Both the position numbers and the translations under genes were made by a program. From positions 16,069 through 68,289 of the forward strand of contig CAYFPB010000001.1 in the NCBI GenBank assembly GCA_964344895.1: DNA of 52,221 bases. The letters run 5' to 3'. Below the pieces are notes generated by a model, which was given only the letters and a program-made list of their open reading frames with translations, was not told the DNA's origin and made no database searches. Shown one piece after another: positions 1,405 through 52,221 of the stretch. Each line of letters begins with the position of its first letter. Position 1 is the first letter of the stretch. This stretch comes from an uncultured Candidatus Peribacteria bacterium (GTDB lineage Bacteria; Patescibacteriota; Gracilibacteria; BD1-5; UBA6164).

Positions 1405-1947
1405 ATGGAAAAATTTTTAAAAGAAATTATTGAAGATAATGTTTTTGAGATATTAATTGATAAAGATATTTTTTCAAAAGATATTGTATTAAAAGCTTCA
1501 TATAATTTTTTAGATAGATGATACTTTTTTTTTAGATTAGATAAAGATTATAATATTATATTACAATTTACAAAAAAAGATGATTCTAATGAGAATCCGA
1601 AAAATATATTAGATGATTTTTCTGATGAAATGTTATCTGTATTACTAAGAGATAATTTGGAAAAAGAAAATAAAAATATAAGAGAAGCAATAGTTTGAGC
1701 AGCAATTTGAAATTGTTTGGACTCAAATAATTTTGTAGAGATAAATACAGATAAGCAAGAAAGTAATCAAATAGATTTTGATAAAGATATTGATGATATT
1801 TTGAAAGATATTGAGAATGATCCAGATTTAAAGATAGACGAAGAAGAAATAGAGAATATATTAAAAGAAATAGAAGAAGAAAGTAAAGTGGATATAAAAA
1901 TAGATCCTGAAGGATTAAAAAAAGCAAAAGAGAGTTTTAATAAGTAA
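1405..1947 (+). CDS. hxsD: HxsD-like protein (His-Xaa-Ser system accessory family) with an added acidic C-terminal tail
   Basis: 180-aa table-25 ORF, frame hand-checked. The N-terminal ~100 aa (FEILIDKDIFSKDIVLKASYNFLDRGYFFF ... DFSDEMLSVLLRDNLEKENKNIREAIV) fit what I recall of the TIGRFAMs HxsD model, which is named after an LLNDYxLRE motif. The tail reads DFDKDIDDILKDIENDPDLKIDEEEIENILKEIEEE. The gene lies two genes upstream of HxsB- and HxsA-like genes. Confidence 0.55.
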
Positions 1948-1950
1948 TAA

Positions 1951-2157
1951 ATGTTTATGAAAAATGTAATAGAATTAAATAATAAATTTTATACAGAGAA
2001 TTTGATAAATCATTGAATAGAAGATTTTAAAGAATATGCTGATATTAGTTATTATAACTGATTATTATCTATAGAGTGAGAGACTGAAACAGAGATAAAA
2101 GAAATATTTAATGAGTTTATGAATTATATAATATGACTTTATAATGAAACAATATAA
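1951..2157 (+). CDS. Small acidic protein (68 aa), paralog of 40513-40695; possibly a truncated HxsD-like module
   Basis: Sequence is MFMKNVIELNNKFYTENLINHGIEDFKEYADISYYNGLLSIEGETETEIKEIFNEFMNYIIGLYNETI, read codon by codon. It has the same position (immediately 5' of an HxsB-like gene) and the same layout as the 60-aa ORF at 40513. Confidence 0.5.
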
Positions 2158-2160
2158 TCT

Positions 2161-3639
2161 ATGATAGATACAAAAAATTTAGAGATAAATAAAAATACTG
2201 GTTTTTTTAGATTTAAAAAATTTGAAGATGATTATCTTATTACAAATGATATATGAAAATATAGTTTTTTAAATAAAGATGAATTTTGAGATTTTATTTC
2301 ATGAAAAATAGTTAGTTGAGAAAAATATAATGAATTATTAGAAAAAAGATTTATAAAAGATGAAAAATATGAAGAAAATATGGCAATCGGTTTTTCTAAG
2401 AAAAATAAATTCTTAGCTTATTGACCATCTTTACATATAATTGTAACCACTTTAAGATGTAATCATAAATGCAGGTATTGTCATGCTGCTGTAGCTCCAA
2501 TGACTGCAAGTGAAATGGATATGACAGAGCAAACTGCAAAAAAAGTTGTTGATGCTATATTTTTTACTTCTAGCCCAGATTTAACAATAGAATTTCAATG
2601 ATGAGAATCATTGGTTAATTGGGATATTGTAAAGTTTGTTATTGAATATTCTAAACAAAGGGCTTTTCATTTAAAGAAAAACTTACAATTAGCACTTGTA
2701 ACAAATTTAAGTTTAATGGATGATGAAAAGTTAACTTATTTATTAGATAATAAAGTCTGAATATCAACTAGTCTAGATTGAGATGAAGAAACTCATAATT
2801 TTAATAGAACATATAAAGAAGGAAATAGTTATAAAAAAGTAACTTATTGGATAAAAAGAATAAACTCTGAATATGAAAAAAGGTGAATAAAACAAAAAGT
2901 TTGAGCACTATTAACTGTTACAAAAAAAACTTTAACTAAGTATAAAGAAGTAATAGATACATATGTAGATTTATGATTAGATGGAATCTTTCTTAGACCT
3001 TTAAATCCATATGGTTTTGCTTTAGCAGAGCTAAAAGAGTTATGATATACTACAGAAGAATTTATAGAGTTTTATAATAAGTCAATGGACTATATAATAG
3101 AATTAAATAAAAAGTGAGTTAATTTTAAAGAAGCTCTTAGTTCAATTTATTTAACTAAAATGCTTACAGATTGAGATCCTAATTATTTAGATGAAAGAAG
3201 TCCTTGTTGAGCATGTATATGACAAGTTGCTTATAATTATGATTGAAGAATATATAGTTGTGATGAGGGAAGAATGTTTTCTAGAATGTGAGATGAAAAT
3301 TTCTTAATGACAGATATAAAAGAAACTTGAGAGGAAACATATAAAAGTATGATTGAATCAGAAACAACAAAAATAATGGTTCAAGCTTCAACTTTAGATT
3401 GATTACCTGGCTATAATGAAAGTGTTTATAAACCATATATTGGTGTATGTCCAATTCATAGTTATAAAACAAGTTGAAATATTATACCAAACTATTCAAA
3501 AGACCATAAAAAAATATTAGATTATGCTGTTTTAGATTATTTATTCTGAAAACTTAGGGATGAAAAAAATGAAAGAATATTTAAAAAGTGGTTATGAATG
3601 GAAACAAATACTGTTACAAGTCAATGTGAAACAATGTAG
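2161..3639 (+). CDS. hxsB: Radical SAM/SPASM-type maturase, HxsB-like
   Basis: 492-aa ORF, frame hand-checked. It has an FRFKKFEDDYLITNDIG N-terminus, a CX3CX2C motif (CNHKCRYCHA) and FQGGESLVNW. The C-terminal part is Cys-rich: SPCGACIGQVAYNYDGRIYSCDEGR ... YIGVCPIH. It is a full-length paralog of 40707-42212 and lies directly upstream of the HGS-repeat gene. Confidence 0.7.
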
Positions 3640-3664
3640 TTTTAATTTTTAATTTATATTTTTT

Positions 3665-4030: not shown

Positions 4031-4039
4031 TTAAAAAAT

Positions 4040-4978
4040 ATGCAAGATAAGGATTTTAAAGACATTAAATGATTGGAAATATCACTTTTATATCAATGTA
4101 ATGTTAAGTGTGAGTTTTGTCATTTATGAAATTTAAAATCTGAACATAGACAGAGTTTAACGAAAATTCAAGTTATTGACTTTTTAGAAAACTGATATAA
4201 AACATGAAAAAGATCTGTTGTATTTACATGATGAGAACCTACTCTTGATAATAATTTAGCTTTTTATATAGATTATTCAAAAAAGCTTTGATATAAATAT
4301 ATAAGAGTGCATTCAAATGGTTATTGATTTAGAGATTTTTCATATTTAGAAGATTTATATGATAAATGACTTACAGGTGTAACAATTTCTATACATGGAT
4401 ATTGACTAATACATGATTCAATTACAAAAGTAAAATGAAGTTTTGATCATATTTTTAGGAGTCTAGTAAATTTTGAAAAAATAATTTTAAAAGATAAAAG
4501 TTTTTCTGTTGATACAAATTCAATTATTTGCAGAAAAAATTATAAATACTTAAAACAATTATTAATATTTTTATTGAAATTTTCTATAAAAAGAAGGATG
4601 TTTACATATACATTTGATACTGTTTTATATCATGAATATGATAAATTAAAAAATATTATAGTATCTTATGAAGAGTTAAAGCAACCATTAGATGAATTAC
4701 TAGAATATTGTTATACTAAAAATGTTAAAGATTTTGTTTTAGATTCTGTTCCTTTTTGCCTTATAAATAAAAAGTATTGGAATTATATAGAAGAAAACTA
4801 TCTACCAGAAAAATTTTTTTATTTGTTAGATTATTATGAATGATATGAAAATACATATAATGATTGAAAAATAAAATATTTTGAATGTAAGAAATGTAGT
4901 AAAAATAATGTTTGTACTTGATTTTCAGAGGATAATAATTTACTTTATTGAAAAACTAAATTTAATATATTAATATAA
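4040..4978 (+). CDS. Radical SAM protein, candidate HxsC-type second maturase
   Basis: 312 aa, frame hand-checked. Motifs are CNVKCEFC, FTGGEPTL (tga tga gaa cct at 4229-4240) and a C-terminal ECKKCSKNNVC. Its position immediately 3' of the HxsA-like gene matches the paired-rSAM layout of Hxs systems. The HxsC assignment itself is not verified. Confidence 0.6.
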
Positions 4979-4984
4979 AAAAAT

Positions 4985-5800: not shown

Positions 5801-5803
5801 TAT

Positions 5804-6721
5804 ATGAAAATATTTTCTTCAAAAACAAATTACATAGAATTTTTTGTGAAAATTGGAAAAAAATGTCCTACTAGTTGTTCTAATTGTAGTTATGCTAACT
5901 CATCATTAGATTATTTTGATATAGAAAATATATTTAAAAGAGTAGATTATTGACAAAATCTTTTCCTAGGAAAAGATTTTGTCTATTTTTTATATTGAGT
6001 AGATTTCTTATCTCATCCTAAAATGTATGAAATCCTTGATTATATAAAAAATACATGAAGAAAATTTAAAATACAAATTTGATTATTAGACTTGGAAAAA
6101 AAAAGGGAAGTATTACTAGATTTATATAAAAGATATTGATTTTTTGAAGTAACTATAGCTAATGAAGTTAATGATAAAGATGATATAAAAAATATATTAA
6201 CAGCTCTATCTAGTTTTTCAAAAATAAATAATTTTAGGTTTAATTTTGACTTAATAATTGATGTAGCTAAAAACAAAGTTTTTATAAATAAATTAAAATC
6301 ATTATTTTGATCTTATAGAGTTGATAAAGTACATAAAAATTTAACTTTTGATGATGTCTGAAATATAAACCTTTGAATAACTGATAAGTTTTATTTAGAT
6401 TCAAGTAAAAAGAAAGTAAAAAATGTAGTTTATAGTCACTGTATAATGAATGATTTATTTGATATTGAAGATGATATAATATATTTTAATGATCATATAG
6501 AACTGGATTTTGATTGAAATATAATGCTACATACACCACTTTGTTTTTTAGCTTACATAAAAATAGCTCATATGGAAGATACACAACAAGTGATATTAAA
6601 AAAATTTAAAAAATTTAAGAAAGATATTTCTTGTATAGATTGAAATATGGAGGAAAAATGCTTTAAGTGTATTATTAATAATTATCCAAAATATAATGAA
6701 AGAAACAGTAAGAAAATTTAA
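5804..6721 (+). CDS. Radical SAM-like protein
   Basis: 305 aa. Has CPTSCSNC near the N-terminus and a C-terminal EEKCFKC. The 3' end overlaps the next gene by 26 nt. Confidence 0.55.
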
Positions 6722-7631
6722 TGATGTAGCCATAGTAGGGACTTATGAGTGTAATACTGATTGTGAGTACTGTTTTTCTACTAGGTATATAAAGCCTTAT
6801 AAAAACATATCTTTAACAAGGGACAAGTTTTATAATATTTTAGATAAGTTAATACTAAATTGAGTTACTTCAGTATCTTTTATATGATGAGAACCAGCAC
6901 TTTGGAAAGAAATAAATTTAGCTATATCCTATGCAAAGTCTAAATGATTAAGAACAACAGTTTTTTCCAATTGAATGATAGAGATAAAGAAAAAACCTGA
7001 TGTCTTTTATATTCATTTAAATGTATTATTTTTAACTCAAAATAAACAAATTTTAAAAAATTTATATGAATATTCAAAGAATTCAAAAATAGTTTTTATT
7101 TATAATGTATACAAACCAAATAAATTTTCTCTAAATTTATTATTAAAAGTGCTAGAAAGTTTTAGATTTGATTTTGCTGTTTCTTTTAATATTGTTTTTT
7201 GAGATAATATAGATGAATCATCTGGTGATTTTATATATAATTGATATAAGTATATTACCTGAAAAATGTGAAAAAATGTTATATCATCTTGACCATTACC
7301 TCATTGTATTTTTAATGATAAAGTATTTGATTATTTGAAAAATACTTGTATTATAGATGAAGTCAAATGATCAGCTAATTTTGAAAATACAGATGTTTTT
7401 TTTCCTGTAATTAATCCAGATTGAGATACATTAATGTCATGTGCACCAATTAATATAAAAATTAGTTCATCTTATATTTTTGAGAATGATTATAAATGAT
7501 ATACAGATAAATTTACAGAAATATTCTGAGAGATTTTATTAAAAGAAAATGATTTTTGTAAAGGCTGTACAAAGTTTAATAAACAATGCCAATATGGAGG
7601 TATTTTAAATCTGTATTCTTATGAGGAGTAA
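6696..7631 (+). CDS. Radical SAM protein
   Basis: 311 aa. Motifs are VGTYECNTDCEYCFS, FIGGEPALW and a C-terminal CKGCTKFNKQC. The track ORF 6975-7202 is an internal fragment in the same frame. Confidence 0.7.
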
Positions 7632-7645
7632 TAAATAGTATTATT

Positions 7646-9866: not shown

Positions 9867-9875
9867 AAATAGAAT

Positions 9876-11195
9876 ATGAATGAAAAAAAATTAAATTTTT
9901 GGAAATATATGACATATAAAATGTTATCTATTAATTCTTCTTTTGTCTTTCCATTAGAGTTTTTTTTCAAGCATAATATTAAATTAGACAAGCAAAAAGT
10001 ATCAAAATATTTAGATATAAAAAATAAATGATTATATATTCATATCCCATTTTGTATAAAAATATGTGATTATTGTGGATGTTATAAACAAAAATTAACA
10101 AAAGATGATGATTTAAATAAGTATGTGGAATATTTAGTAAGAGAATTAGAATTATATTATGAATTAAATAATAATAAAAAGTTGGTATTTACTACAATTA
10201 TGTTTTGATGATGAACTGCATCAATACTTTCAGCTGAACAATTAGATTATTTATTTTCTTGAATATTTAAATATATTGATAAAAGTTATTTAAAGCAGCT
10301 TAGTTTTGAAGCATCAATTTTTACACTTAGTAATGATAAAATAAATGTACTAAAAAGCTATTGAGTTGATAGAATTTCAATTTGAATTCAGAGTTTTGAT
10401 AAAAATGTATTAGAAAAAAATAATAGAATTTATATAGAGTATAGAAAAATAAAACAAATAATTGATTATATAAAATTATCTTGAATATTAGTTCAAATTG
10501 ATTTAATGGTTTGAATAAAATGACAGGATGAAGTAAGTTGCATAAAAGATTTTAAAAAAATGCTTGATTTGTGAGTAGATAGTTATACAATGAATTATTA
10601 TATTCCACATAGTTTTGCTAATTTTTCAGATACTAAAAGATCAATTGATTTAAAGGAAACAATAAAGAAGCTTGATAAAAAATATAACTTTAAAACAAAA
10701 AATAATAATTCATATTTATTACAAGAGGAACTGGTATTTAATGATTTTAATTACTTTGTAATATGATTAGGAGTTTGAGCTACAACAAATATTGCTAATA
10801 GATTTATTTATAGGAAAACAGACTTTAATAATTATTATAATCACATTAAAAATAAATTGTTAATTGTTGATGAAGCAATAGAGATGTCTAATAAATTTGC
10901 AGCAATAAAATATATATTTGAAAAATATAAGGAAACTGAATTTGATTTAAAAGACTTTAAAAAACAATTTTGAGTAAAGCTAAAAGATTATTTCCCTTAT
11001 GAAATTGATTTTTTAATTAAGGAAAATATAATTAAATTAGAAAGTGATAAAGTAGTTTTTTTAAAAAATAAATATGAATCAAGAATTTATTTAAATATCT
11101 TTTTAGAAGATTTATTTGAGACAAAAAAAGATATAGATATACCAGTTTTAGATAAACAATTCCATATAGATTTAATGTGATTAATTTATGAATAG
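9876..11195 (+). CDS. HemN/HemW-like (class C type) radical SAM protein, copy 2
   Basis: 439 aa. Motifs are LYIHIPFCIKICDYCGC, FGGGTAS and GVDRISIGIQS. It is collinear with copy 1 from the N-terminus (KLNFWKYMTYKM vs KLLKWKYATYMR). Confidence 0.75.
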
Positions 11196-12090
11196 TAATT
11201 GTATGATAAGTAATGATAAAAATGTTTTTGAGTGTAGTGCAGTAACAAAGTGAATTGAAATAGAATTTACTAGTTATTGTGGATTAAAATGTATTGTATG
11301 TCCTAGGAAAAAACTAGATAGATATAATTTTTTAAAGTTTGATGACTTTAAAAAAATAGTAGCCTTAGTTAAACAAGGTAATTACACAGAAATAATGGTT
11401 TGTTGATTATGAGATGCTTTTTTACATGAAGAAATAAATCTATTTTTAGATTATTTATTTTGTGAAATCCCAGGAATAAATTTTTTTATAATGACTAAAT
11501 GACAAAGTATACAAGATAAGCACTTAGAAAAAATTAAAGAATTAAAAGATAGATGATTCAATGTTTCCTTAACTTTTTCAATTTTTTCACTTAATAAAAA
11601 AGTATATAATTATTTAACTTGATGAGAAAATTTTGATAGATTTATGAGTATTTTTAAAAAAGTAATTTCTATGAATTTAAATTATTCAATTGAGTTTTTA
11701 CTTTCTACTTTAACAATAAAAGAGTTGGAAAAATTTAAAGATTTTGCAAAATCTTTATGAAAAAATGACTATTGAGTTTCTTTGGTTCACAATTGGTGAT
11801 GAGAAATAAGTGATACTATACATAAAAAACTTTTTGATGAAGAAAAGTTAAAATGATTTTATGAAAAGAGGAAAAATAATGATTTGTGTGAAGCTATAAA
11901 ATATGATTATTTATATATTGATTCATATGGAGACGTGTTTCAATGCTCATTAAATGAGTTACATAGGAAATGATTTTTATGAAAAATATGAGAATATAGT
12001 TTGGAAGAATTTTTAGAAATGAAAAAAGATTTGAACTATAAAAAGACTTGTGAAAATTGTTTTTATTTGGATTATAAAACCTTTTGTTAA
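11188..12090 (+). CDS. Radical SAM protein with C-terminal Cys-rich (SPASM/twitch-like) region
   Basis: 300 aa. Has a CGLKCIVCPR motif. The C-terminus reads CEAIKYDYLYIDSYGDVFQC ... CENCFYLDYKTFC. Confidence 0.7.
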
Positions 12091-12092
12091 TC

Positions 12093-25748: not shown

Positions 25749-25750
25749 AG

Positions 25751-31461: not shown

Positions 31462-31472
31462 TAAAAAAAAGA

Positions 31473-33843: not shown

Positions 33844-33858
33844 TTGTATAGTAGAAAA

Positions 33859-36071: not shown

Positions 36072-36090
36072 TTTTTATTTGTACTTATTT

Positions 36091-36131
36091 AAAAAATAAA
36101 TATATTATATAGTATAATATATTTATTTTTT
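36091..36131. other. 19-bp all-A/T perfect hairpin between an rSAM gene and the hxsD-like gene
   Basis: The arms aaaaaataaatatattata and tataatatatttatttttt were checked pair by pair and are separated by a 3-nt loop. The stem would be weak because it has no G/C pairs. Confidence 0.3.
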
Positions 36132-36145
36132 TACATTAAGACATA

Positions 36146-36742: not shown

Positions 36743-36776
36743 AAATATCCTAGTTACTAGGATATTTTTATTTGTT
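36734..36776. terminator. 20-bp-stem palindrome spanning both stop codons of convergent genes
   Basis: The sequence is taacaaataaaaatatcctag tta ctaggatatttttatttgtta, with pairs checked out to 36734/36776. Both convergent ORFs end ...aac aaa taa (N-K-stop) inside the two arms. Confidence 0.6.
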
Positions 36777-40370: not shown

Positions 40371-40512
40371 ATTTTCATATTTAAATATAATATATATTAA
40401 TTTAATCATATTTTTTAAATAAATGCAAAAATAGCTTAATTTTTATTTGTTTATAATGAAAAAATGATTATATTATATTAGAAAAATTTATATATTTTTA
40501 AGTAACGAATTA

Positions 40513-40695
40513 TGAAAAAAAATTTTGAATTATCTTCTGAACTTTATAGTAAGGGGAATGTAATGAAAGCTATTGAAGATTTTAAAGATATTGCAACTAT
40601 AGAATTTGATAATTATAAATTAATTATTAGTTGAGAAGATGATGATGATATTGAGGAAACTTTTGCTGAATTATTAAACTATATTATTTCTTTAG
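40513..40695 (+). CDS. Small acidic protein (60 aa), paralog of 1951-2157
   Basis: Sequence is MKKNFELSSELYSKGNVMKAIEDFKDIATIEFDNYKLIISGEDDDDIEETFAELLNILFL, read codon by codon. It lies immediately 5' of the second HxsB-like gene. Confidence 0.5.
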
Positions 40696-40706
40696 AGTGT
40701 TAAAAA

Positions 40707-42259: not shown

Positions 42260-43207
42260 ATGAAAAAAATCGTATTATTAACATTTTGTTGTTTATTAGT
42301 AGTTTCTTGTTGAAAAACTGAAACAAATATAGAGAAAACTGAAAATAATAAATCTCAAACAACAAATATTGTAGAAAAAGAAGAAAAAACTTTAACTGAA
42401 AAACCAGTTGAAATATCAAAAGTTACAAAAAACTGGGTAGATATGTTTTATACTTCTGAATATCAAAAACTAATAGATAATTCAAAGAAAGTACCAGAAG
42501 AAGATTTAACTTCAAAAGATTTATTATTTATTTGAGAATCTTATAAGTTTTTATGAAACTTTAAACAAGCAATAGTTTATTATAAGAAAGTATTAGAAAA
42601 AGAGCCAGAAAATACAAGAGCTATTTATAATATAGCTTCAATTAATTATGATACTTTTAGAAATTTTGAGGAATGATTAAAATATATGTTAAAGTATGAT
42701 AAACTACGCCCAAATAATTTTACTACTTTAAGTAAAATATGAAGAATATATTCTGATATGAAAAATTTTAAACAAGCAGAAGTATATTTTAAAAGATCAC
42801 TTGAGATTCAACAAAATCAAGCAATATTAAAACAACTTGCTATGTTATATAGTTTTAATTGAGAGTACTTAAAATCTATTACTTATTATGAAAAAATGAA
42901 TAATTTATCATGAAATGATTTTATGAACTATATAATAACTTTATTTTTGGATAAGCAATATACTAAATTAGTATCAGAGTATGATAAATATAAGAAAGAA
43001 TGATTATTAAATAATACTAGAATTGATAGAAATATTGCAAGGTATTATGTATATTCAAGTGTAATATTATGAAATAAGCAAGAAGCTATAAATTTACTTA
43101 AAGAATTACAAAAAAATAATCCATCAGATCCAAATATATTAATGGATTTATATATGTTGGATTCAGCTAATAAAAATACATATTTAAATAAATTAAAAGA
43201 AAAATAA
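42260..43207 (+). CDS. Lipoprotein with TPR-like repeats
   Basis: 315 aa. MKKIVLLTFCCLLVVSCG is lipobox-like. TPR-like helices include FKQAIVYYKKVLEKEPENTRAIYNIASINY and FKQAEVYFKRSLEIQQNQ. Confidence 0.6.
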
Positions 43208-44229
43208 TGATTTTAGTTATACAATGGCATATAACAGAATTATGTAATTGGAGATGTAAACATTGTTATCATGATAAATACTTAGAATATTGACCAAGCT
43301 TAGAGCAATTAAAAGATATTTACAAACAAATAACAACAATTCAAAATTCTTATTTTTGAAAGATAGATACTTTTGTTATCAATTTTATATGATGAGAACC
43401 TTTTATAAGGAATGATTTTTTAGATTTATTAGAGTATATTAATAATAATACAAAGTATTTACAAATATGAATTTTAACAAATGGTTCACTTTTAACAAAA
43501 GAAATTTTAGATAAATTAAAGACTTTTTCAAATTTGAATATATGGTTTCAAATAAGTATAGAATGAACTCAAGAGGTAAATGATAATATTAGATGAAAAG
43601 GTAGTTTTAAAAAAATTTTTGATTCTATAAAACTTATTAAGGATAATGATTTTTATGTAGAACTTTCTTTAACATTAACTAATAATAATAAAAAGCATAT
43701 AATTGCTTTAATGCCTTTTTTAAAAAAAAGTGATGTATTATTAAAAATAAGAAGGCTTGTTGCTATGGGGCAATCTGATAACTCAAAACAACTAATTTTA
43801 GATAAAAAGGAAATGTATGCTTTATCTAAAAAATTAACAATATTATCAAATAGGTATTTTAAGTGAGTAAAAAATGCTAGAATATCTTTTGATGGATGTT
43901 CTGAAATGCTTTCCTATAACTACAATTGAATATGATGTTGAATAAATGATCATAGAATATTAATTATTTTAGAAAATCTAGATGTAATGGCATGTAGAAA
44001 ATTAGATGTAGTTTTATGAAACCTAAAAGATAAAAAGTTAAAAGATTTATACTTTGATAATAAATATATTGATTTAATCAATTCTTATAAAAATATTAAA
44101 GAATGTAGAGATTGTAGTATATATAATAAATGTAAGTGATGAGCTAAATGTATTACTCATTCACTAACAAGAGATATTTATAAACCAGATCCAGGCTGTA
44201 TAATTATAGATAAAATAAATAAAAAATAA
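43207..44229 (+). CDS. Radical SAM/SPASM-type protein
   Basis: 340 aa, every codon hand-checked. Motifs are ITELCNWRCKHCYH and FIGGEPF (tga tga gaa cct at 43390-43401). The C-terminus reads DGCSEM ... GCGIND ... CRDCSIYNKCKGGAKC. The ATG overlaps the preceding TAA. Confidence 0.75.
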
Positions 44230-45057: not shown

Positions 45058-45768
45058 ATGGAAAAAAAAATATGAGTAATAGATTCAAAAAAAATTAATG
45101 AAGTAATAGAATCAGAAAATATTGATAAATTTAAAGATTTTATTAATAGTTTAACATCTCTAAATGTTTATACTACAAATGGTGCTACTTTGTTAATTCA
45201 TATTATTATTAAATGAAATATAGAACAATTAAAATATTTAATAGAAAAATGAATAGATTTAGATTTTGCTAATGAATCAAATAAGATTCCAATAAATATT
45301 GCAATTCATTTTAATAATAAGGAAGTTGTTAAAATATTGTTAGATAATAATGTTAAGTTAGATAGTGTAGATCATTTTTGATTTACAGCTTTGGATTGAG
45401 CAATAAATATGTGAAATAATGAAATAATTAGTATGATATGTGAAAAACAAAAGCTTAATTCAAAAGATATTGATGAAAAAAATATAATAAATAAGTTAAA
45501 TGCAGCAATAAATACTGATAATGTACCTTTAGTTGAAGAATTATTAAAAAAATGTAGTAATATTGATTCAAAAACTAATTCTTGATATACATTATTAAGA
45601 CATGCAATATATAAGGATAATTTTGAGATAATAAAAATGCTTGTTGAGGCATGAGCTGATTTAAATAAAAAGGATGAAAAAGGTAATACATACTTGTATT
45701 ATGCTAGATGAAAATGAAATATGGAAGTAATAAAATATTTAAGAGAAAAGTGAGCTTTTTATATATAA
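45058..45768 (+). CDS. Ankyrin-repeat protein
   Basis: 236 aa. Repeats are of the type NGATLLIHIIIKGNIEQLKYLIEKGIDLDFANE, GFTALDGAINMGNNEIISMI and SGYTLLRHAIYKDNFEIIKMLVEAGADLNKKDEKGNTYLYYA. Confidence 0.7.
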
Positions 45769-46833: not shown

Positions 46834-47658
46834 ATGAATGAATTAATAATTTTTTTAAAAAAATTTTTAGAGAAAGATAATTATAAATATGATAGGCTAA
46901 AATCTTATACATTAGCATTAAATCCACGGTATGACTTAAATAATAGAAGATTATATTTATCATATAAATATGCAATAAAATTTTTTGTTAAAAATTTTAA
47001 TGTATTATTAAAAAAGTATTTATTTTTTTTAAAATTATTAGACTACAAAGATGATTTATTAATTGAATATTGAGAATATAATTGATTTTATTATATTGTA
47101 GAAAATAAACTGCAAAATATATCATTTCCTCCTGTACAAGAAAATATTTTAGATTGTATGCTTAACTTTTCTTCAAAAAAAATAAAAATTTCTGATTTTC
47201 AAGATAAATGATTTTTATACTTAACTGATAGAAGTAATTATGAAGTAGTTGAAATATTAAAAACAAAAGTAGTTGAAAATTTATATGATATATTGTATAT
47301 TGAATATGAAATAATGAAGATAAAAAATAGTATTTATTCAATTGAAGAAACTAACTTATTTTTTGAAAAATTAACTTTGGCAAAAGAAAGTTTATCTGAA
47401 ATTAAATATTTATATTTAACTTCTTGAGATTTACATAATAGTAACTTTAAAAGAACTAATAATAATAAATATATTTATATAGATATTGATGAGATAGGTT
47501 TTTTAAGTTATTATTATGATATAGTAGGTTTAATTAGATATTTATGAGAAGATAATAAAGAATATATTTTTAATAGATATGAAGAAGTGTTTTGAAAAAT
47601 AGATAAAAATATTTTAGATATTTTTGTTTATTATAGGAAATTACATCATTCAGAGTAG
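46834..47658 (+). CDS. Kinase-fold (APH-like) protein
   Basis: 274 aa. YLTSGDLHNSNFKRTNNNKYIYIDIDEIGF fits hGDlHxxN ... iDfe, and the catalytic-loop Asp is present. The track ORF 46834-47073 is its 5' fragment. Confidence 0.5.
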
Positions 47659-47680: not shown

Positions 47681-48859
47681 ATGAATAAAAGATTTTGTAT
47701 TGAGCCATTTTTAGGTTTTCTATGACATATAAATTGAAATTATGCTATTTGTTGTCTTGATAAAATAAATAGGGAGAAATGACTATTATGAAATATAAAA
47801 AATAAAGATAGTTTTAATAAGTTATGGAATTCAGAAGAATTAAAAGAAATAAGAGCAAAAATGTTAAAGTGAGAAAAAATTAAAAACTGTGAGTACTGTT
47901 ATAATGTTGAAAAAAAGTGATGAATTAGTAGAAGATTAAAATTATTAGAATTAAGAAAAGATAAGGTTAAATATATATTACAAAATACTCTTACAAATTG
48001 ATATGTTAATTATTGAATAAAAAGATTGGATTTAAGACTAAGTAATACATGTAATTTTTCATGTAGGTTTTGTGATTCATTTTTTAGTAGTAATAGAGCT
48101 AAGTTAGATAATTATTTATGATTATCTAGTAATAATAATATAAATAATTGGAATAGTCATATACTTAATAATGAAATAAGAAATATATATATTGAATTAG
48201 AAGAAGTTAGATTTGCATGATGAGAACCTTTATTAGAACAAAATCATTATGATATATTATATAACTTGATTGATTTAGGTGTTTCAAAAAATATAAATTT
48301 AATATACTCAACAAACTTATCTATTTTACCATGATTAACAAAAGGTTATGATCATTTTTTAAAAAAATGAACTAATAATATATTTGATTTATGGGATAAG
48401 TTTAAACATATAGAGCTGTGAATAAGTGTAGATTGATATAAATCTTTTTATGATTATATTAGATTATGATGAAAATGGGAAAATTTTATATATAATGTGG
48501 ATAAGGTTTTTGAAAAAAAAGAGTATCATAAGGTTTTTAAGATAACTGTTTGAAGAGAAAATATTTATAATATACCTTATCTATATATATTTTTATCTCA
48601 GTATAAAACATGAATATTTTTTATATATATTTTATCTCCACAGTATTATAAAATAACAAATATATCTAAAGAAGAAAAACTAATAATAACTAATCATTAT
48701 AAGAGATTTATAGAAAAATATTGAGAAAATACATATAATTTAAAAAAGCATTTTTTAAGAATACTTAAATTTTTAAATTCACAAGAAACTAATATTGATT
48801 TTCAAAAACAGTATAAGAGTGTTACAGAAAAAATTAATAAATTTTATAAATATATATAA
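47681..48859 (+). CDS. Radical SAM protein with an N-terminal Cys-rich (twitch/SPASM-like) domain
   Basis: 392 aa. The N-terminal FCIEPFLGFLGHINGNYAICC ... NCEYCYNVE precedes the core LSNTCNFSCRFCDS and FAGGEPLLE. Confidence 0.65.
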
Positions 48860-48865
48860 ACTATT

Positions 48866-49921
48866 ATGGACAAAATAAGTTGAAAAAAGTATGGTTTTTG
48901 AAAAAAATATGATAAACCATTTACACAGTTAGATTTATGAAATTCATGTAATTTGAGATGTAGCTTTTGTTATTATGATAGTGAAAGAAAACAAAATGAT
49001 TATTTTAAAGATCTAGATTTAATAAAAAATCAAATAAATGAAATTTGAAAAAAATCAAACTATGTATCAATTTTATGATGAGAAACATTACTTCATCCAG
49101 ATTTTTGGGAAATAATGGATATTTTAAATAATAAATGATTAATTGTAGGAGTAGTTTCTTCATGATATTTCTTTTGAGATAAGAAAATTATGAAAAAATT
49201 ATTATCATATGATAATTTAGATGTAATAACTATTTCTATTCATACAATTTTTGAAAATGAATGAGAAAAAATATATTGAGAAAAAAATATTGTAAGTAAA
49301 CTATTAAGTTGATTAGATTGATTACTTGATTGAGTTAAAAAATACAATTCTAATATAAATGTGATTAATTATATCACATGGAATAAGTATAATTATAAAA
49401 ATACACATAAAGTTATAGATTATGTTAATAATAAATGAATAAAAATTATTCAAATATCTTGAATACATGCTTATAGTTCTTTTGGATTTTCAATAAATAA
49501 TTATAACTCTTTAGTACCTTATATATTTTTAAAAAATACTTTTGAAAATATAAAACCATTATTAAATAAAGGATTGATTATAATGGTAAAAGGTTTTCCT
49601 CTGTGTGTACATAGGTTTTTCATAGATTATAATTATTGAATAAAAGAATTTATGTTTTGAGAAACATATGACTCAAAGCTTGATTCTGTTTGAGAAAAAG
49701 TATGGGATAATCAAATGGATTATAAAATTACATTAGATAAGTGTAAAAAATGTTATGCATACAAAAAATATTGTTTTTGAGTATATAAGTTTTATTATAA
49801 AAAGTATAAAGATAAAGAGTTAAAATCATTATCTAAAAGAGAAGTAGAATTATTAAAAAATAAAAAATTTGATAATTTACAGAATTATTATTCACAAAAA
49901 AATAAAAAATTATATGAGTAA
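48866..49921 (+). CDS. Radical SAM protein (paralog of 45778-46821)
   Basis: 351 aa. Motifs are LDLGNSCNLRCSFCYYD, ILGGETLLHP, FPLCVHRFF and CKKCYAYKKYCFG. Confidence 0.7.
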
Positions 49922-51779
49922 GAATCTTTACATAACATTAGTATGATGATTACCTTGGTTATATAAATCAAGTTTTTTTAGGGTTGATTGAATAGATCAT
50001 TTAAATTTATCTAGTTTATTTTGGAAAACTGTTTTTAGGCCAGACTTTTTTTTAAATGAAATAAAATGTAACAATAATAGTTTTGATAAAGAAGAACTTT
50101 TGTATATTGCAAAGAATTCACAAAAAGTTTATAAAAACCTTATTGACTTAAAGGACAAAGACATATGAATTGAAAAAATAGTTTTTTCTTTCGTTTTAAT
50201 ATATAAATTAACAAATTTGTTATCAAATAATTTTTTATCTATTAAATTTTTTGATCAATTTAAAATAAAAGAAAAACAGTTTTTTGAAAATTTAAATAAT
50301 AATATTATTTTTAGATTTTTAGAAGAAATAGAAAAATGTAATCATATAAAAAATTATGATAATATAATATTTAGAATAGATACATTAGAGCAACTATATC
50401 AAATAAAAATGATTGATAATGTTTTTTTTCAAAATAATTTAAAAGAAAAAAAGATATTCTTTTTTATTTGAGATATTATAGAGTTTGAATCAAAATCATA
50501 TTTTTTAAAATTTATAAAAAAATATGATTTTACAAAACAATATGATAAGGTATTTTTTACAAGACAAGAATTATTTAATTTTTTTAATGTTATACCAAAT
50601 AGTAAAAAATCAAAAGAAATAGCAAATGTTTGTTTGTTATGAAAAACTAGATCAGCTAAATTTTTGTTTAGCTGAGAGTGTGATTGGTGAAAATGTTATT
50701 TTTGTAATTTTTGGTATAATGAAGCAAAAAGTAAAAGTATATGAGATAAGAAAAATATTATTAATAATTTTTTAAATGATATAGAGAGAAATAGATATGA
50801 TTATATGTTAATAAGAGATCCTTCTATAACTATGGATCAGATGCTTTTACTTGCTGATGAGGTTATAAAAAGGGGAATGAAGGTAAAATTCCAAGTAAAA
50901 ACTAGATTTTCTGAAAAATATACTAAGAGTAATTGTAAAAAATTAAAAAATGCATGAATAGAATTTTTAGGAGTTTGACTTGAATCAGCTTCTACAAGAG
51001 TAAACAATTTAATGAATAAATATGATAAAGATTATGATATATCTAATTTTGATGAAATGTTAAATAATTGTAATGAGGCATGATTAAAATTACATCATTA
51101 TGTAATTTTTTGATTTCCTTCTGAAACAAAAGAAGAAGCAAACTTAACTTATAAATATTTAGAAAAAAATATTGCAAGACAAGATTTGTCTTTTTATTCA
51201 TATACAGTTTGAACTTTCTGAGTAGCTAAGTGAACTTATGTATATAATAATCCTGAAGAGTTTTGAATAAAAACTAATAAAGAAAAATTAGATATACTTG
51301 ATTATGATTTTGAAGATAGTAATTTAAATTGATACTCAAAACAAGATTATTATCATATATTAAGAGAATTAGATTTTCTTCAGTTTTTTGATTTTTCAAA
51401 TTATAAAAATTTATCAAAAGAATTCTGGTATTTTGTAGAAAAATCATGGATATTTCATTTTCAAAAATTTGAATATAAAAATAATCCTTACTTAGAATTT
51501 TCTAGAAAGAATTCTAATATAAATTTAATAAATTTATTTGATTATGATTATAAAATTGCTGAAAATATACAAATAATAAAAACAGATAAATTATTAGCTA
51601 AAAATTGGTTATCATGATATGAACTAGAAATAGATGAAAGTGTGGAAAAATTTCTTTCTAATTATAATTCAAAAATTAGTTTTATAAAAAATTGTGAGTT
51701 GCTATTATATAATTATGATAAAAAATATAAAAACCTATTATATTGATTAATAAAAATGTATTTTTTTATAAAAAAATAA
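49914..51779 (+). CDS. Large radical SAM-like protein with atypical CX4CX2C motif and ~250-aa N-terminal domain
   Basis: 621 aa. FSGECDWGKCYFCNF is encoded tgt gat tgg tga aaa tgt tat ttt tgt (50679-50705). Downstream are GIEFLGVGLESAS and HHYVIFGFPSETKEE, which resemble the layout of B12-binding-type (class B) rSAM enzymes. The class assignment is unverified. Confidence 0.55.
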
Positions 51780-51868
51780 TATAATATAATAATTTGATTT
51801 TTATAAAAAAATAAATATATTATAGACTGAAAAATAATGGAATTGTAATAAATATAATTATATATAAT

Positions 51869-52221
51869 ATGGCAAAAAAATTTCCAAAAATAAAATCCGG
51901 TTTAAATAAGTTTTTACTTGAAGAAGAAGTATCTATTTCAAAAAAAGATGCTTTACTTATGTGAGCTTGAGCATTGGTAGCTTGAGCTGTAGTTTGAGAA
52001 ACGGAGGTTGATACAAGTTCTTGAATAAACAATGTAGAAGCTTGAAATGATTGTAATTCTAATAGAGTATCTACATTGTGATGACACTGTAGTGCATTAT
52101 ATAATGAATGAAATATAGGTAAACATAGTAGCCATGGTTCACATGGAAGTCATGGATCACATGGAAGTCATGGATCACATGGAAGTCACGGTTCACATGG
52201 AAGCCATGGTTCACATGGAAG
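51869..52221 (+). CDS. hxsA: His-Xaa-Ser repeat protein (HxsA-like), copy 2; 3' end runs off the window
   Basis: Read codon by codon. The N-terminus is MAKKFPKIKSGLNKFLLEEEVSISKKDALLMGAGALVAGAVVGE, which compares with KKIFPKIKKKLRGFITEESGKISKKDALGLAACSALL at 3665. It is followed by ...GKHSS and at least 9 consecutive HGS units up to the last base. Confidence 0.75.
52133..52221 (+). repeat. In-frame 9-nt tandem repeat encoding (His-Gly-Ser), at least 9 full units, truncated by the window end
   Basis: The units are catggttca catggaagt catggatca catggaagt catggatca catggaagt cacggttca catggaagc catggttca catggaag. Confidence 0.95.

Follow-up and report, generated by a model that had tools for sequence, protein, structure and literature searches.

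In Escherichia coli, the four-gene HXS system was shown experimentally in 2026 to be an antiphage system that blocks phage DNA entry. Maturation and export of its HxsA need HxsB, HxsC and HxsD, through which HxsA is processed at its N-terminus and gains a modification of +8 Da on SHRSS (PMC13128918). The statement in an earlier note on the present DNA that Hxs is defined only bioinformatically is thus superseded. In Gracilibacteria, Nif-like/rSAM (radical-SAM) loci were noted in 2020, the HxsB label from NCBI is already on many MAGs, and NCBIfam already models the variant (HxsA4, HxsC4 and HxsD_rel). Compared with the simple four-gene form of E. coli, the Gracilibacteria array is expanded and triplicated. 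The earlier note did not recognise such a version as described; the variant itself is already modelled, but no description was found of the cluster scale or of the Hxs-to-nitrogenase-like link.

The window (the whole stretch analysed, 52,221 nucleotides of a Gracilibacteria chromosome; BD1-5, genetic code 25) holds about five-sixths of a ~61-kb array in which almost all genes are co-directional, with three minus-strand genes (Table 1). Identical contigs from other samples extend the array ~10 kb beyond the window and bring six further rSAMs, together with one more HxsB and one more HGS-repeat protein, the third of each. The supercluster proposed earlier is real, but its size was understated: 28 rSAMs over ~61 kb instead of 22 over ~50 kb. 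Tight packing was also seen, with 34 of the 46 junctions between window genes at 15 nt or less or overlapping. A tiny-genome bacterium thus commits ~61 kb to an expanded, triplicated His-Xaa-Ser system.

Table 1. Features of the array within the window, with the supporting match or observation (PF04055, radical-SAM domain).
Coordinates	Strand	Feature	Evidence
1405..1947	+	HxsD #1	TIGR03976 62.1 bits (cut-off 50)
1951..2157	+	Small HxsD-related protein #1 (68 aa)	NF038315 HxsD_rel 32.8 bits (below cut-off 41)
2161..3639	+	HxsB #1, radical-SAM/SPASM maturase	TIGR03978 497.6 bits (cut-off 370); PF04055 54.2 bits
3665..4030	+	HxsA-like precursor #1 (121 aa)	Sequence
4040..4978	+	HxsC-like rSAM	PF04055 57.1 bits
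4985..5800	+	Lipoprotein, lipobox LVSC	Sequence
5804..6721	+	Divergent rSAM-like protein, CPTSCSNC motif	hhalign
6696..7631	+	rSAM	PF04055 40.5 bits
7646..8545	+	rSAM	PF04055 48.1 bits
8538..9866	+	HemN/HutW-like (class C-like) rSAM	PF04055 66.6 bits
9876..11195	+	HemN/HutW-like rSAM	PF04055 59.1 bits; NCBIfam; 42% to paralogue 8538
11188..12090	+	rSAM, SPASM-like C-terminus	PF04055 56.5 bits; SPASM 19.4 bits
12093..12857	+	GFO/IDH/MocA-type Rossmann oxidoreductase	PF01408 34 bits
12858..14960	+	Carbamoyltransferase (NodU/TobZ type) #1	Carbam_trans_C 143, Carbam_trans_N 34.6 bits
14966..16993	+	Carbamoyltransferase #2	Carbam_trans_C 201.5, Carbam_trans_N 90.3 bits
16994..18382	+	rSAM/SPASM (NirJ2/AhbD-like)	PF04055 75 bits; SPASM 22.1 bits
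18375..19664	+	rSAM	PF04055 46.9 bits
19666..20001	+	Small Bro-N-like protein	Bro-N 20 bits (below cut-off); PADLOC candidate PDC-S13 46.9 bits
19994..22657	+	Carbamoyltransferase-rSAM fusion	Carbam_trans_N and _C; PF04055 50.1 bits
22647..23222	+	Nitroreductase-fold protein	PF00881 62 bits
23209..24015	+	Possible kinase-fold protein	APH 16.4 bits (below cut-off)
24025..24990	-	Rossmann-fold protein	Weak NAD(P)-binding matches
25730..26716	+	HxsC4-like rSAM, Nif-associated	PF04055 56.6 bits; HxsC4 66.6 bits
26719..27720	+	HxsC4-like rSAM, Nif-associated	PF04055 63.8 bits; HxsC4 77.3 bits; synteny
27772..29397	+	NifD/K-like subunit 1	PF00148 35.7 bits
29399..30607	+	NifD/K-like subunit 2	PF00148 94.2 bits
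30643..31461	+	NifH-like ATP-dependent reductase	PF00142 273.5 bits
31473..32387	+	rSAM	PF04055 52.9 bits
32377..33678	-	Prepilin-peptidase-like membrane protein	Peptidase_A24 30.7 bits
33859..35133	+	HxsC4-like rSAM	PF04055 66.7 bits; HxsC4 129.4 bits (cut-off 500)
35133..36071	+	HxsC-like rSAM	PF04055 86.1 bits; HxsC 99.5 bits (cut-off 267.9)
36146..36742	+	HxsD #2	TIGR03976 43.8 bits (cut-off 50, narrowly missed)
36768..40409	-	Secreted surface protein, 1213 aa	Big_3_4 match
40512..40703	+	Small HxsD-related protein #2	NF038315 44.6 bits (cut-off 41)
40707..42212	+	HxsB #2	TIGR03978 499.4 bits (equivalog cut-off 370)
42260..43207	+	TPR lipoprotein, lipobox VVSC	TPR families
43207..44229	+	rSAM/SPASM (SbtM/MftC-like)	PF04055 69.6 bits; SPASM 23.3 bits
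44232..45050	+	DUF3050 protein	PF11251 149.4 bits; PDB 9vwb, E = 2e-22
45058..45768	+	Ankyrin-repeat protein	Ank_2 107.5 bits
45778..46821	+	rSAM	PF04055 69.2 bits; 59% to paralogue 48866
46834..47658	+	Unknown protein	
47681..48859	+	N-terminal twitch-domain rSAM	NF033640 269.1 bits (cut-off 170); PF04055 32.3 bits
48866..49921	+	rSAM	PF04055 64.6 bits
49914..51779	+	621-aa rSAM, CX4CX2C motif, long unknown N-terminal region	PF04055 38.9 bits
51869..52221 (cut by window end)	+	HxsA4-type precursor #2 (full length 158 aa)	HxsA4

Since long open reading frames were obtained only with TGA as a sense codon, and TGA stands at invariant glycines (all four in the NifH-like P-loop GKGGIGKS), the code is table 25 (TGA to Gly), as first read. 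TGA also encodes GG in the rSAM 'GGEP' motifs and makes up 749 of the 937 Gly codons, while TGG (n = 105) has a separate use. A chimeric assembly, a concern raised earlier, was ruled out: independent assemblies from at least five samples are 100% identical to the window over 1-13639, 24829-39088 and 47694-52221, and the contigs break nowhere except within a 263-bp repeat that lies inside the surface-protein gene (~39.1 kb).

The assignment as an Hxs-type locus was borne out by HxsB (twice), HxsD, HxsA4 and HxsD_rel matches above their cut-offs. Both HxsD-like proteins, likewise proposed before, carry a precomputed PF27806 (HxsD) match, found for #1 on an identical gene, and share 41% identity. 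The small HxsD-related proteins are paralogues (43% identity), and in most related loci HxsD and HxsB are separated by such a gene. The closest solved relatives of HxsB are the peptide-modifying SPASM enzymes CteB and anSME, CteB (5wgg) being the nearest structure for HxsB #2 (E = 4.7e-21). HxsC or HxsC4 were the top NCBIfam matches for five window rSAMs (4040, 25730, 26719, 33859 and 35133), with the canonical cut-offs widely missed (99.5 vs 268 and 129 vs 500 bits); the gene at 4040 scored 72.2 bits for HxsC4 and 69.4 for HxsC, both far below. Two further paralogues of HxsC-like rSAMs, on the contig carrying the extension (L002), were assigned by BLAST similarity only.

HxsB and the HxsA-type genes each number three across window and extension. 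The Hxs copies differ in arrangement, and only the first is contiguous. Paralogue pairs in the cluster show 41-75% identity, in line with the diverged pairs described earlier. The in-situ expansion deduced from them fits HxsB copies 2 and 3, which are sisters, but not the copy-1 type, which branched off before species divergence.

Both HGS-repeat proteins of the earlier note were recovered. Proteins of this type are 121-180 aa long and end in a run of 6-26 His-Gly-Ser repeats; conserved across the HxsA family are a Lys-rich leader at the N-terminus, a hydrophobic signal-peptide-like segment after it and an 'HASGxVNGHYS' motif in the middle. The Lys-rich N-terminus and signal-peptide-like segment fit the secreted or membrane-anchored product that had been suggested. 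Precursor #1 (conserved leader, six tandem HGS, HGSRW at the end) gave weak scores for HxsA3 (23.9 bits) and HxsA4 (21.9 bits), below the cut-offs; its N-terminal and mid motifs are common to ~30 Gracilibacteria homologues. Precursor #2, complete on the identical contig L002, matched HxsA4 (NF038313) with 70.9 bits (cut-off 55). A minus-strand reading frame over it (51869..52221) was discarded as spurious.

All but one of the 22 rSAM genes first listed (21/22) exceeded the PF04055 gathering cut-off of 29.5 bits in Pfam; the one listed at 25751 starts at 25730 according to the gene caller. The exception, at 5804, had no match in Pfam or NCBIfam. A KCPTxCSxC motif is conserved in this protein, whose family aligned with the 6696-type rSAM family (hhalign probability 94.7%) and the HxsC-like family (95.6%), which supports a divergent rSAM-like protein and the original count of 22. 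The rSAM at 7646 (public gene call; alternative start, 7586) is a paralogue of that at 31473 (34% identity). Scores were below the cut-offs for 8538 against the STM4012, HemN and HutW models (113-129 bits), for 16994 against NirJ2 (94 bits) and for 43207 against SbtM (132 bits). The rSAM at 49914 had no PDB relative; a 30%-identical paralogue is on L002.

Related loci were covered to 10 kb on either side, and GCA_028689205.1 and GCA_054046585.1 were tiled end to end. The core order HxsD, small HxsD-like, HxsB, HxsA, HxsC-like rSAM was found in ~30 Gracilibacteria species representatives, with the HxsC-like rSAM after HxsA (the position of 4040) kept and the same accessory rSAM families following the core. 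The cluster is thus a lineage-wide Gracilibacteria feature and is not confined to the present genome. On average, 5.2 of 10.6 open reading frames 3' of HxsB were rSAM-like (17 related loci) vs 0 of 12.1 upstream (19 related loci); therefore, rSAM clustering with HxsB is beyond chance.

The nitrogenase-like trio of the earlier note was confirmed by two Oxidored_nitro matches and one to NifH. Cys152 and Cys226 of subunit 1 are invariant in six homologues; Cys38 of subunit 2 is also invariant. The NifH-like protein retains the P-loop and both cluster Cys and falls below the cut-offs of NifH, CfbC, BchL and BchX. The Hxs core, rSAM suite and trio are physically linked: in both tiled genomes HxsD, the rSAM suite and the trio follow in a single co-directional array (in one, with a carbamoyltransferase between NifD/K and NifH), and in related locus L007 NifD/K lies within 10 kb of HxsB. 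The window and GCA_028689205.1 share the order 25730-type, 26719-type, NifDK, NifDK, NifH and, further on, 33859-type, 35133-type, PilD-like (minus strand) and surface protein. In that genome, 25730 orthologues are directly upstream of the trio and a 72%-identical 33859 orthologue comes after it.

Since close NifH-like relatives number ~31 vs >120 for HxsB, the trio is not universal among Hxs clusters. In addition, since it is found without HxsB/HxsA-like neighbours, the trio with its HxsC4-like rSAMs may be a module separable from Hxs. Candidatus Absconditicoccus praedator and a divergent Gracilibacteria contig have both, with no HxsB/HxsA-like gene within 10 kb on either side, and in Elusimicrobiota the gene calls beside the trio show neither gene. 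The A. praedator cluster contains a 41%-identical homologue of 18375 and a 34%-identical homologue of 25730, the latter within a block of rSAM genes that precedes the trio.

For the array as a whole, we lean towards an expanded, lineage-specific Hxs/HXS rSAM maturation system with secreted HGS-repeat substrates. With the aid of HxsD and HxsD_rel, the cytoplasmic steps on His and Ser of the repeats would be carried out by HxsB together with the HxsC-like rSAMs, possibly through radical cross-links or C1 additions, by analogy with the +8 Da change of E. coli HxsA. The same substrates would be tailored by the 20-plus rSAMs, HemN-like ones included, and further by the ATP-driven NifH/D/K-like reductase with four HxsC4-like rSAM companions, the O-carbamoyltransferases, the nitroreductase-fold protein, DUF3050 and the Rossmann enzymes; all array enzymes would presumably act on HxsA. 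The product would then be exported, N-terminally processed and active at the cell envelope, either as a barrier or defence or in host interaction. No dedicated protease or exporter was found in the array. Nitrogenase-like enzymes of an uncharacterised class now adjoin a candidate peptide substrate.

Among the remaining genes, the three carbamoyltransferases, the nitroreductase, DUF3050 and ankyrin proteins, two Rossmann proteins and two lipobox lipoproteins named before were recovered by Pfam or sequence. The kinase-fold call was weakly supported for one candidate (23209), whereas family searches gave no match for the other (46834); the lipoprotein at 4985 had no family match in Pfam or NCBIfam. 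In the fusion at 19994 the rSAM domain is C-terminal (residues 615-760), and six related loci carry this part as a gene of its own. Pathway membership of the Bro-N-like protein is uncertain, as is the role in the Hxs system of the surface protein at 36768, a conserved neighbour with paralogues both at the start of the window (1-1272) and on L002 and with relatives flanking the Hxs clusters of L018, L022, L026, L036 and L039. The Rossmann protein at 24025 has a homologue after the HxsC-like gene in related loci, and in L002, L039 and L018 the end of the cluster is marked by an opposite-strand paralogue or orthologue of the prepilin-peptidase-like protein.

All family searches were run on table-25 translations. 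In the window (G+C 21.3%), long ORFs were seen only with TGA as a sense codon, and 46 genes were called, plus one truncated by the window end. TGA codes all four glycines of the P-loop GKGGIGKS in the NifH-like protein, and the GG of the radical-SAM (rSAM) 'GGEP' motifs is also written with it. This codon accounts for 749 of the 937 Gly codons, with TGG (105) in separate use. The assumption of code 25 was correct, TGA being Gly at invariant glycines, and table 4 (TGA = Trp) was rejected because TGA occupies these positions. In the public protein collection the window proteins belong to an 87,429-bp contig and were translated with TGA = Trp, hence their 'self' identities of 95% and 91%. A minus-strand ORF at 51820-52221 was discarded as the reverse frame of an HGS-repeat gene. 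Tight packing was confirmed, since 34 of the 46 junctions are of 15 nt or less or overlap. The tRNA and Rfam scans gave no match.

It was considered extremely improbable that the cluster is an artefact of mis-assembly or mis-translation. Contigs from several samples do end within a surface-protein gene, at about 39.1-39.4 kb and nowhere else, and the join of the window's two halves is carried by a single 87-kb contig. However, the break point coincides with a 263-bp internal direct repeat (97.7% identity) in this gene, and independent assemblies from at least five samples are 100% identical to the window over 1-13639, 24829-39088 and 47694-52221. In addition, code 25, composition and Hxs content are common to both halves, and syntenic clusters are present in other genomes. 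No sign was found of the chimera that the earlier note had envisaged, and this option was rejected since the assemblies from several samples agree.

The same note had counted 22 rSAM proteins, and most of them have profile support: PF04055 scored above the gathering threshold in 21. The remaining one, 5804, had no Pfam or NCBIfam match, its support coming from hhalign. It keeps the conserved KCPTxCSxC motif, and its five-member family aligns to two rSAM families of the cluster with hhalign probabilities of 94.7% and 95.6%; on this basis we call it a divergent rSAM-like protein. Superfamily membership was judged by PF04055 together with a CX3CX2C-type motif, from which 49914 differs in having CX4CX2C. 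The latter spacing was observed in two paralogues, of 621 aa (49914) and 696 aa, both with an N-terminal region of about 250-320 aa without detectable family or solved relative; a PDB sequence search with the 621-aa protein gave no match. Like the SPASM maturases (CteB/SCIFF, anSME, PqqE, MftC, SbtM), HxsB, 43207, 16994 and 11188 combine an rSAM core with a SPASM-like C-terminus, and CteB is the closest solved structure to the window's HxsB (E = 4.7e-21), but no characterised family's cut-off was reached except HxsB's own.

Among the other array members, three carbamoyltransferases were present as reported, one of them fused to an rSAM domain, a fusion found only in the window's genome among the loci examined. 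The three paralogues carry Carbam_trans_N and Carbam_trans_C, as do O-carbamoyltransferases of the NodU/CmcH/TobZ type, but score about 138 bits against the NodU cut-off of 1000. The nitrogenase-like trio (two Oxidored_nitro proteins and a NifH-like protein), the nitroreductase, DUF3050, ankyrin and two Rossmann proteins, the TPR lipoprotein and a second lipoprotein were all found, and the kinase-fold calls proved weak. Inside the array lies also a 111-aa Bro-N-like protein, which matches the PADLOC candidate families PDC-S13 and PDC-S05 and may be a mobile or defence-related insertion.

Positions of array features in the window and in compared contigs (family scores in bits, cut-offs in brackets)
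Feature	Sequence	Position (strand)	Match or remark
Surface protein, 1783 aa	window	1-1272	3' part of gene
HxsD, first copy	window	1405-1947	TIGR03976 62.1 (50)
Small protein	window	1951-2157	HxsD_rel NF038315 32.8 (41)
HxsB, first copy	window	2161-3639	TIGR03978 497.6 (370)
HGS-repeat protein, first	window	3665-4030	HxsA4 NF038313 21.9 (55); Gly codons counted
Divergent rSAM-like protein	window	5804-6721	
Bro-N-like protein	window	19666-20001	
NifD/K-like pair	window	27772-30607 (+)	PF00148 in both subunits
NifH-like protein	window	30643-31461 (+)	PF00142 273.5
Prepilin-peptidase-like protein	window	32377-33678 (-)	array-edge type
Best HxsC match	window	35133-36071	TIGR03977 99.5 (267.9)
HxsD, second copy	window	36146-36742	TIGR03976 43.8 (50)
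Surface protein, 1213 aa	window	36768-40409 (-)	array-edge type
Direct repeat, 263 bp	window	~39025-39566	within the 1213-aa gene
Small protein, 63 aa	window	40512-40703	HxsD_rel NF038315 44.6 (41)
HxsB, second copy	window	40707-42212	TIGR03978 499.4 (370)
rSAM, 621 aa	window	49914-51779	
HGS-repeat protein, second (5' part)	window	51869-52221	Gly codons counted
HGS-repeat protein, second (complete)	L002	4176-4652	HxsA4 NF038313 70.9 (55); Gly codons counted
Continuation of array	L002	4529-14660	~52222-62353 in window coordinates
HGS-repeat protein, third	L002	5790-6332	HxsA4 NF038313 92.9 (55); Gly codons counted
rSAM paralogue, 696 aa	L002	11531-13621	
Prepilin-peptidase-like and surface protein	L002	14826-18278	array edge
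Prepilin-peptidase-like and surface protein	L039	15983-19220	array edge
Prepilin-peptidase-like and surface protein	L018		array edge
ATP-synthase operon	L047	1-9112	upstream of the window
ATP-synthase operon	L004		directly upstream of HxsD
ATP-synthase operon	L056		directly upstream of HxsD
Carbamoyltransferase gene between NifD/K-like and NifH-like genes	L055	7917-10001	GCA_054046585.1
Trio with eight rSAMs	L040	860067-880894	Ca. Absconditicoccus praedator, CP054059.1

The core of the array is an Hxs system of a variant type already modelled by NCBI curators. Two window proteins match HxsB, and a third copy lies just past the window end. The first HxsD passed its cut-off, the second fell slightly under it, and both carry the precomputed PF27806 HxsD. 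With respect to NCBIfam type 4, the second HGS-repeat protein (completed from L002, an identical contig obtained from a further sample of this project) and the third one pass HxsA4, and the 40512 protein passes HxsD_rel, while the first HGS-repeat protein and the first small protein scored under these cut-offs. The top NCBIfam match was HxsC or HxsC4 for five window rSAMs; neither the HxsC cut-off nor that of HxsC4 (NF038332, 500 bits; best 129.4) was reached, so relatives are present in the window, but not family members. The canonical HxsA model was not returned, the NCBIfam matches of the repeat proteins being HxsA3/HxsA4 and collagen-like adhesin models. In many Gracilibacteria MAGs HxsB is already so named by NCBI, and literature searches found no published description of the HxsA4/HxsC4/HxsD_rel variant or of its extended neighbourhood.

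The canonical reference was HxsD-HxsB-HxsC-HxsA of Pseudomonadota (TIGR03976-03979; Haft & Basu 2011; Li et al. 2026). The window shares with it an equivalog-level HxsB, HxsD, a second, HxsC-like rSAM, and an effector with tandem His-Xaa-Ser repeats and a predicted N-terminal export signal; maturation in the cytoplasm followed by export would also be common to both. The core fails, however, the canonical tests for HxsC (at most 99.5 bits against a cut-off of 268), gene order and HxsA architecture. In the window and about 30 related loci the order is HxsD, HxsD_rel, HxsB, HxsA, HxsC-like, with the additional small HxsD-related gene, whereas 99.6% of described HXS systems have the order D-B-C-A (PMC13128918). 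The repeats are uninterrupted H-x-S units, mostly HGS (6, 18 and 26 in the three precursors; His-Gly-Ser in 6 to at least 26 copies), with Gly and not a basic residue at the X position, while E. coli HxsA has five basic repeats. No peptidoglycan-binding domain, as present in E. coli HxsA, was found in the HGS-repeat proteins. Moreover, the window system is triplicated, adds 20-plus rSAMs, the nitrogenase-like trio and carbamoyltransferases, and belongs to a code-25 CPR bacterium, whereas 99.7% of described HXS systems are found in Pseudomonadota (PMC13128918).

The supercluster reported in the earlier note was confirmed and, if anything, understated. Contig L002 is 100% identical to the window from 47694 to its end and goes on for about 17 kb beyond it. 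The genes gained there are, in this order, the remainder of the second HxsA, an rSAM/SPASM protein, the third HxsA-type protein, two HxsC4-like rSAMs, a lipoprotein, a small protein without a known family, the third HxsB, the paralogue of the 621-aa rSAM and another SPASM rSAM; at the far end of the array follow a minus-strand prepilin-peptidase-like gene and then a surface protein. The six additional rSAM genes of this ~10-kb continuation all have PF04055 support (five tested here, the sixth by precomputed match). Since an identical contig continues the array past the window, it extends from window 1405 to about 62.3 kb, that is, about 61 kb with 28 rSAM-type genes, far above typical RiPP clusters. 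Upstream of the array lie a 1783-aa surface protein and then the ATP-synthase operon. Three divergent Gracilibacteria genomes have this operon directly upstream of HxsD; in the window genome, the surface-protein gene is inserted between the two.

Related arrays were found throughout the lineage. Among the scored candidates, 2694 HxsB relatives were obtained at E <=1e-20, and the named ones among the best 120 of these are almost all 'Candidatus Gracilibacteria', labelled HxsB by NCBI. A one-genome-per-species scan gave 34 loci, nearly all from Gracilibacteria; the complete genomes HOT-871 and 28_42_T64 are among them. When ORFs were called with table 25 and compared by BLAST with the window proteins, the pattern conserved in these loci was HxsD, a small protein, HxsB, HxsA and an HxsC-like gene, followed by a run of the window's rSAM families. 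On average, 5.2 of 10.6 ORFs downstream of HxsB were rSAM-like (17 loci) and 0 of 12.1 upstream (19 loci); therefore, the array starts at HxsD. GCA_028689205.1, tiled whole, has HxsD, small protein, HxsB, HxsA, HxsC-like, then at least nine rSAMs, a methyltransferase, NifDK, NifDK and NifH, with the same order around the trio as the window, and ends with four rSAMs, a minus-strand PilD-like gene and a surface protein. In GCA_054046585.1, also tiled whole, ATP synthase, HxsD, small protein, HxsB and HxsA are followed by eight rSAMs and a trio region with NifDK, NifDK, a 269-aa protein, a carbamoyltransferase, NifH and two rSAMs. With its gene located between the NifD/K-like and NifH-like genes, this carbamoyltransferase is tightly associated with the Nif-like module. 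In a Gracilibacteria contig of greater divergence, a carbamoyltransferase, at least seven rSAMs and the trio again occur together. Thus, the window is a large, triplicated example of a lineage-wide supercluster.

The diverged paralogue pairs, which had been taken as a sign of in-situ expansion, are real. In a rough tree, HxsB copies two and three were recent sisters and the first-copy type predates species splits, so that recent duplicates exist together with older ones and a purely recent expansion was rejected. Multiplication of the maturase appears to recur outside the window's lineage: HOT-871 (L018, a human oral taxon, CP017714.1) and L026 each have three HxsB-type ORFs within 10 kb by BLAST labels, of which two per genome (only ORFs >430 aa) entered the tree, the second very divergent in each.

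From the observed gene content and linkage we hold, with moderate confidence, that the array forms one system for maturing secreted HGS-repeat proteins; its chemistry, and an action of every enzyme on HxsA, we infer. In E. coli, HxsB, HxsC and HxsD are necessary for N-terminal processing and periplasmic export of HxsA and for a +8 Da change (+C, -4H) on its SHRSS motif, and HxsC binds HxsD (PMC13128918). By homology, the founding modification would be made by HxsB, the HxsC-like rSAMs, HxsD and HxsD_rel, with HemN-like rSAMs as plausible C1 donors. Further tailoring could be performed by the ATP-driven NifH/D/K-like reductase, the carbamoyltransferases, the nitroreductase-fold protein, DUF3050 and the Rossmann enzymes, and the last step would be export via the signal-like segment. 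The multi-step maturation pathway for a His/Ser-rich, membrane-anchored or secreted peptide proposed earlier was supported in part. With regard to RiPP-cluster criteria, a conserved leader, a repeat 'core' and SPASM maturases are present, and no dedicated protease or ABC exporter was found in the window; the signal-like segment suggests Sec export rather than an ABC exporter.

About 30 HxsA-type proteins of Gracilibacteria have a common N-terminus 'KKKIFPKIKKKLKGFLTDESGKITKKDALGL', a hydrophobic stretch of 12-18 residues, often with an AxA-like site at its end, the motif 'C.HASGIVNGHYSxTP' in the middle, and (HGS)n at the C-terminus, closed by HGSRW or HGQW. Their N-terminus is probably a leader plus a signal peptide. 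The first HxsA-like protein of the window ends in HGSRW, unlike the two Cys-tailed HxsA4-type proteins, in which the HGS run is followed by (SG)n and then by Cys-rich tails (…SGSGSCC; …SCSCSCSCSSC). The third protein has 24 HGS units in a 26-unit HxS run before its Cys-rich tail. Inside the repeats, TGA accounts for 0 of 6, 3 of 16 and 14 of 24 Gly codons, most being GGN, whereas TGA makes up 80% in the window as a whole. Successive units alternate between synonymous codons, which resembles the synonymous variation in the PTD tripeptide repeat of another Gracilibacterium (Sieber et al. 2019). In three related genomes, proteins of about 305 aa (L020 ORF 13, L021 ORF 13 and L028 ORF 8) carry a pretoxin-HINT domain (PF07591, 34.0 bits vs 27.7) on the C-terminal side of an HxsA-type leader and HxS-rich region, a fusion that suggests autoproteolytic release or transfer of the C-terminus of the HxS peptide.

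With up to 26-32 identical tripeptide units in one precursor, the repeats would also suit a multi-core precursor, whose HGS units are cross-linked, reduced or carbamoylated and then excised to give a small PQQ- or mycofactocin-like cofactor or metallophore. The SPASM rSAMs are related to PqqE, MftC and SbtM, and reductases, nitroreductase-fold proteins and carbamoyltransferases are typical of small-molecule pathways. We regard such a product as improbable, since the window was found to contain no unit-excising peptidase and the related arrays have no conserved one: the sole peptidase-family gene of the window is the minus-strand prepilin-peptidase-like one, and Peptidase_U32 occurs in two related clusters. 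In addition, HxsA works as a protein in E. coli, and the signal-like segment together with the conserved endings (HGSRW, HGQW) suggests an exported polypeptide.

The NifH-like protein of the trio has the P-loop and the Cys of CAGRG and VVCGGF, and it scored below every equivalog cut-off (NifH 279.5/394, CfbC 271.5/402, BchL 207.4/345, BchX 162.6/331 bits); a true nitrogenase, DPOR or CfbCD was therefore rejected. The NifD/K-like pair appears to lack the FeMo-co ligand pattern. Only three Cys stay invariant over six homologue pairs, Cys152 and Cys226 in the first subunit and Cys38 in the second; a simple Fe-S cluster between the subunits, whose fourth ligand is not Cys, may be hinted at by this. 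A rough NJ tree without curated references placed the window NifH-like protein in a tight clade of Gracilibacteria and Absconditicoccus, and an rSAM-linked Elusimicrobiota homologue (46% identity) in a heterogeneous neighbouring group. Since Meheust et al. found group VI NifH in Gracilibacteria, the window trio is probably a group VI NFL. In Elusimicrobia, group VI paralogues have been described beside 'an extensive suite' of rSAM proteins, with homologues in two Gracilibacteria genomes, and tetrapyrrole reduction was proposed (Meheust et al. 2020); the group has no characterised member, its context has been of little help and its hosts are uncultured (Chem Rev 2026, PMC13474568). In common with that group, the window shows the P-loop and both [4Fe-4S] Cys in its NifH-like protein, few conserved Cys in its two highly divergent NifD/K-like subunits, and many neighbouring rSAMs, HemN-like included. 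It differs in that its trio, like that of two further Gracilibacteria genomes, lies inside an Hxs array with flanking HxsC4-like rSAMs, whereas the published reading is synthesis of a tetrapyrrole or unknown cofactor, without a reported Hxs link.

The trio and the rSAM suite were found together in the window and in L039, L040, L053 and L055. In the SR1 bacterium Ca. Absconditicoccus praedator (L040), whose NifH-like protein is 64% identical to that of the window, the rSAMs near the trio include four HxsC4-like, one HemN-like and one 18375-type protein, and neither HxsB nor an HxS-repeat ORF was found within 10 kb on either side. The Elusimicrobiota locus has the trio with two rSAMs only, and close NifH-like relatives (about 31) are far rarer than HxsB relatives. 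For these three reasons, the Nif-like block is an accessory and perhaps separable module.

The same observations would fit a composite locus, in which Hxs modules lie beside a separate group VI-type Nif-like/rSAM pathway for a small molecule, e.g. a tetrapyrrole-like cofactor (Meheust et al. 2020). Cofactor synthesis is the published interpretation of such loci, and the HemN-like, NirJ/AhbD-like and CfbC-like similarities recall tetrapyrrole enzymes. However, all these matches are far under the family cut-offs, tetrapyrrole precursor genes are absent from the locus, and the rSAMs flanking the trio are nearest to HxsC/HxsC4. Moreover, in the window and the two tiled genomes the trio lies within one co-directional, tightly packed array starting from HxsD, and a composite locus was considered unlikely.

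Under the single-maturation-system reading, the position of the trio inside a peptide-maturation array makes HxsA a candidate substrate for group VI enzymes, which are without a characterised member. We put forward only tentatively that the nitrogenase-like reductase and the HxsC4-like rSAMs act on a ribosomal His-Gly-Ser repeat protein and not on a tetrapyrrole. If so, no enzyme of the nitrogenase family would have been linked to the maturation of peptides or proteins before this one, and the supercluster would lead to an envelope polymer or cofactor derived from histidine, heavily cross-linked, reduced and carbamoylated, with a central part in the life of these epibiotic or predatory bacteria. 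Since A. praedator is grown in co-culture, it is an experimentally accessible host in which the substrate question is testable.

The earlier statement that Hxs has no known product and is defined by bioinformatics only is outdated, since the four-gene HXS system stops phage DNA entry in E. coli (Li et al., Nat Commun 2026, PMC13128918). An analogous barrier against phages or mobile elements, compatible with a single maturation system, is conceivable though doubtful for the window: three diversified modules with tailoring enzymes would reflect an arms race, and HGS proteins in the envelope would block DNA entry. The antiphage function shown for the homologous core, the multiple diverged copies of effector and maturases, the export signals of the HxsA-type proteins and the Bro-N-like gene inside the array, which matches PADLOC candidate systems, all agree with it. 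Nevertheless, three divergent genomes keep the position beside the ATP-synthase operon, and with its presence in at least 30 species representatives the system looks more like a core lineage trait than a patchy defence island. The cost is also large (about 5% of a ~1.2-1.5 Mb genome), and the peptidoglycan-binding domain and basic repeat residues invoked in the E. coli model are both missing. PADLOC-DB v2 searches with ten representative proteins gave only generic similarity to the viperin-type rSAM core (40-70 bits) and the Bro-N-type candidate (19666); this database predates the HXS paper and has no Hxs model, so the result is uninformative for or against defence.

As to whether the gene set is a known, characterised pathway, the component families and the catalogued Hxs variant core are already known. 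No description was found, in the literature searched, of the supercluster, its scale, its Gracilibacteria-wide conservation or a nitrogenase-like reductase embedded in a peptide-maturation array. An Hxs link to nitrogenase-like genes, or the supercluster, is absent from Li 2026, Meheust 2020, the Chem Rev review and the Gracilibacteria/Absconditabacteria genome papers checked. The cluster goes unmentioned in the Vampirococcus, closed-Gracilibacterium and Gracilibacteria metaproteomics papers, and searches for PRJEB17505, Gracilibacteria or Absconditabacteria with radical SAM returned Meheust 2020 only. In code-25 CPR bacteria HXS has a conserved relative that is far larger, which widens its chemistry and the roles it may have. 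Its 28 rSAMs in about 61 kb take up about 4-5% of a 1.2-1.5 Mb genome, which contradicts the minimal-biosynthesis picture of such lineages, and the scale suggests strong selection on a cell-envelope trait. Scale, conservation and the embedded reductase together provide a concrete substrate hypothesis.

Finally, the downstream edge of Hxs arrays in several genomes has, on the opposite strand, a gene for a prepilin-peptidase-like membrane protein, and after it one for a giant secreted protein whose C-terminal domain is shared.
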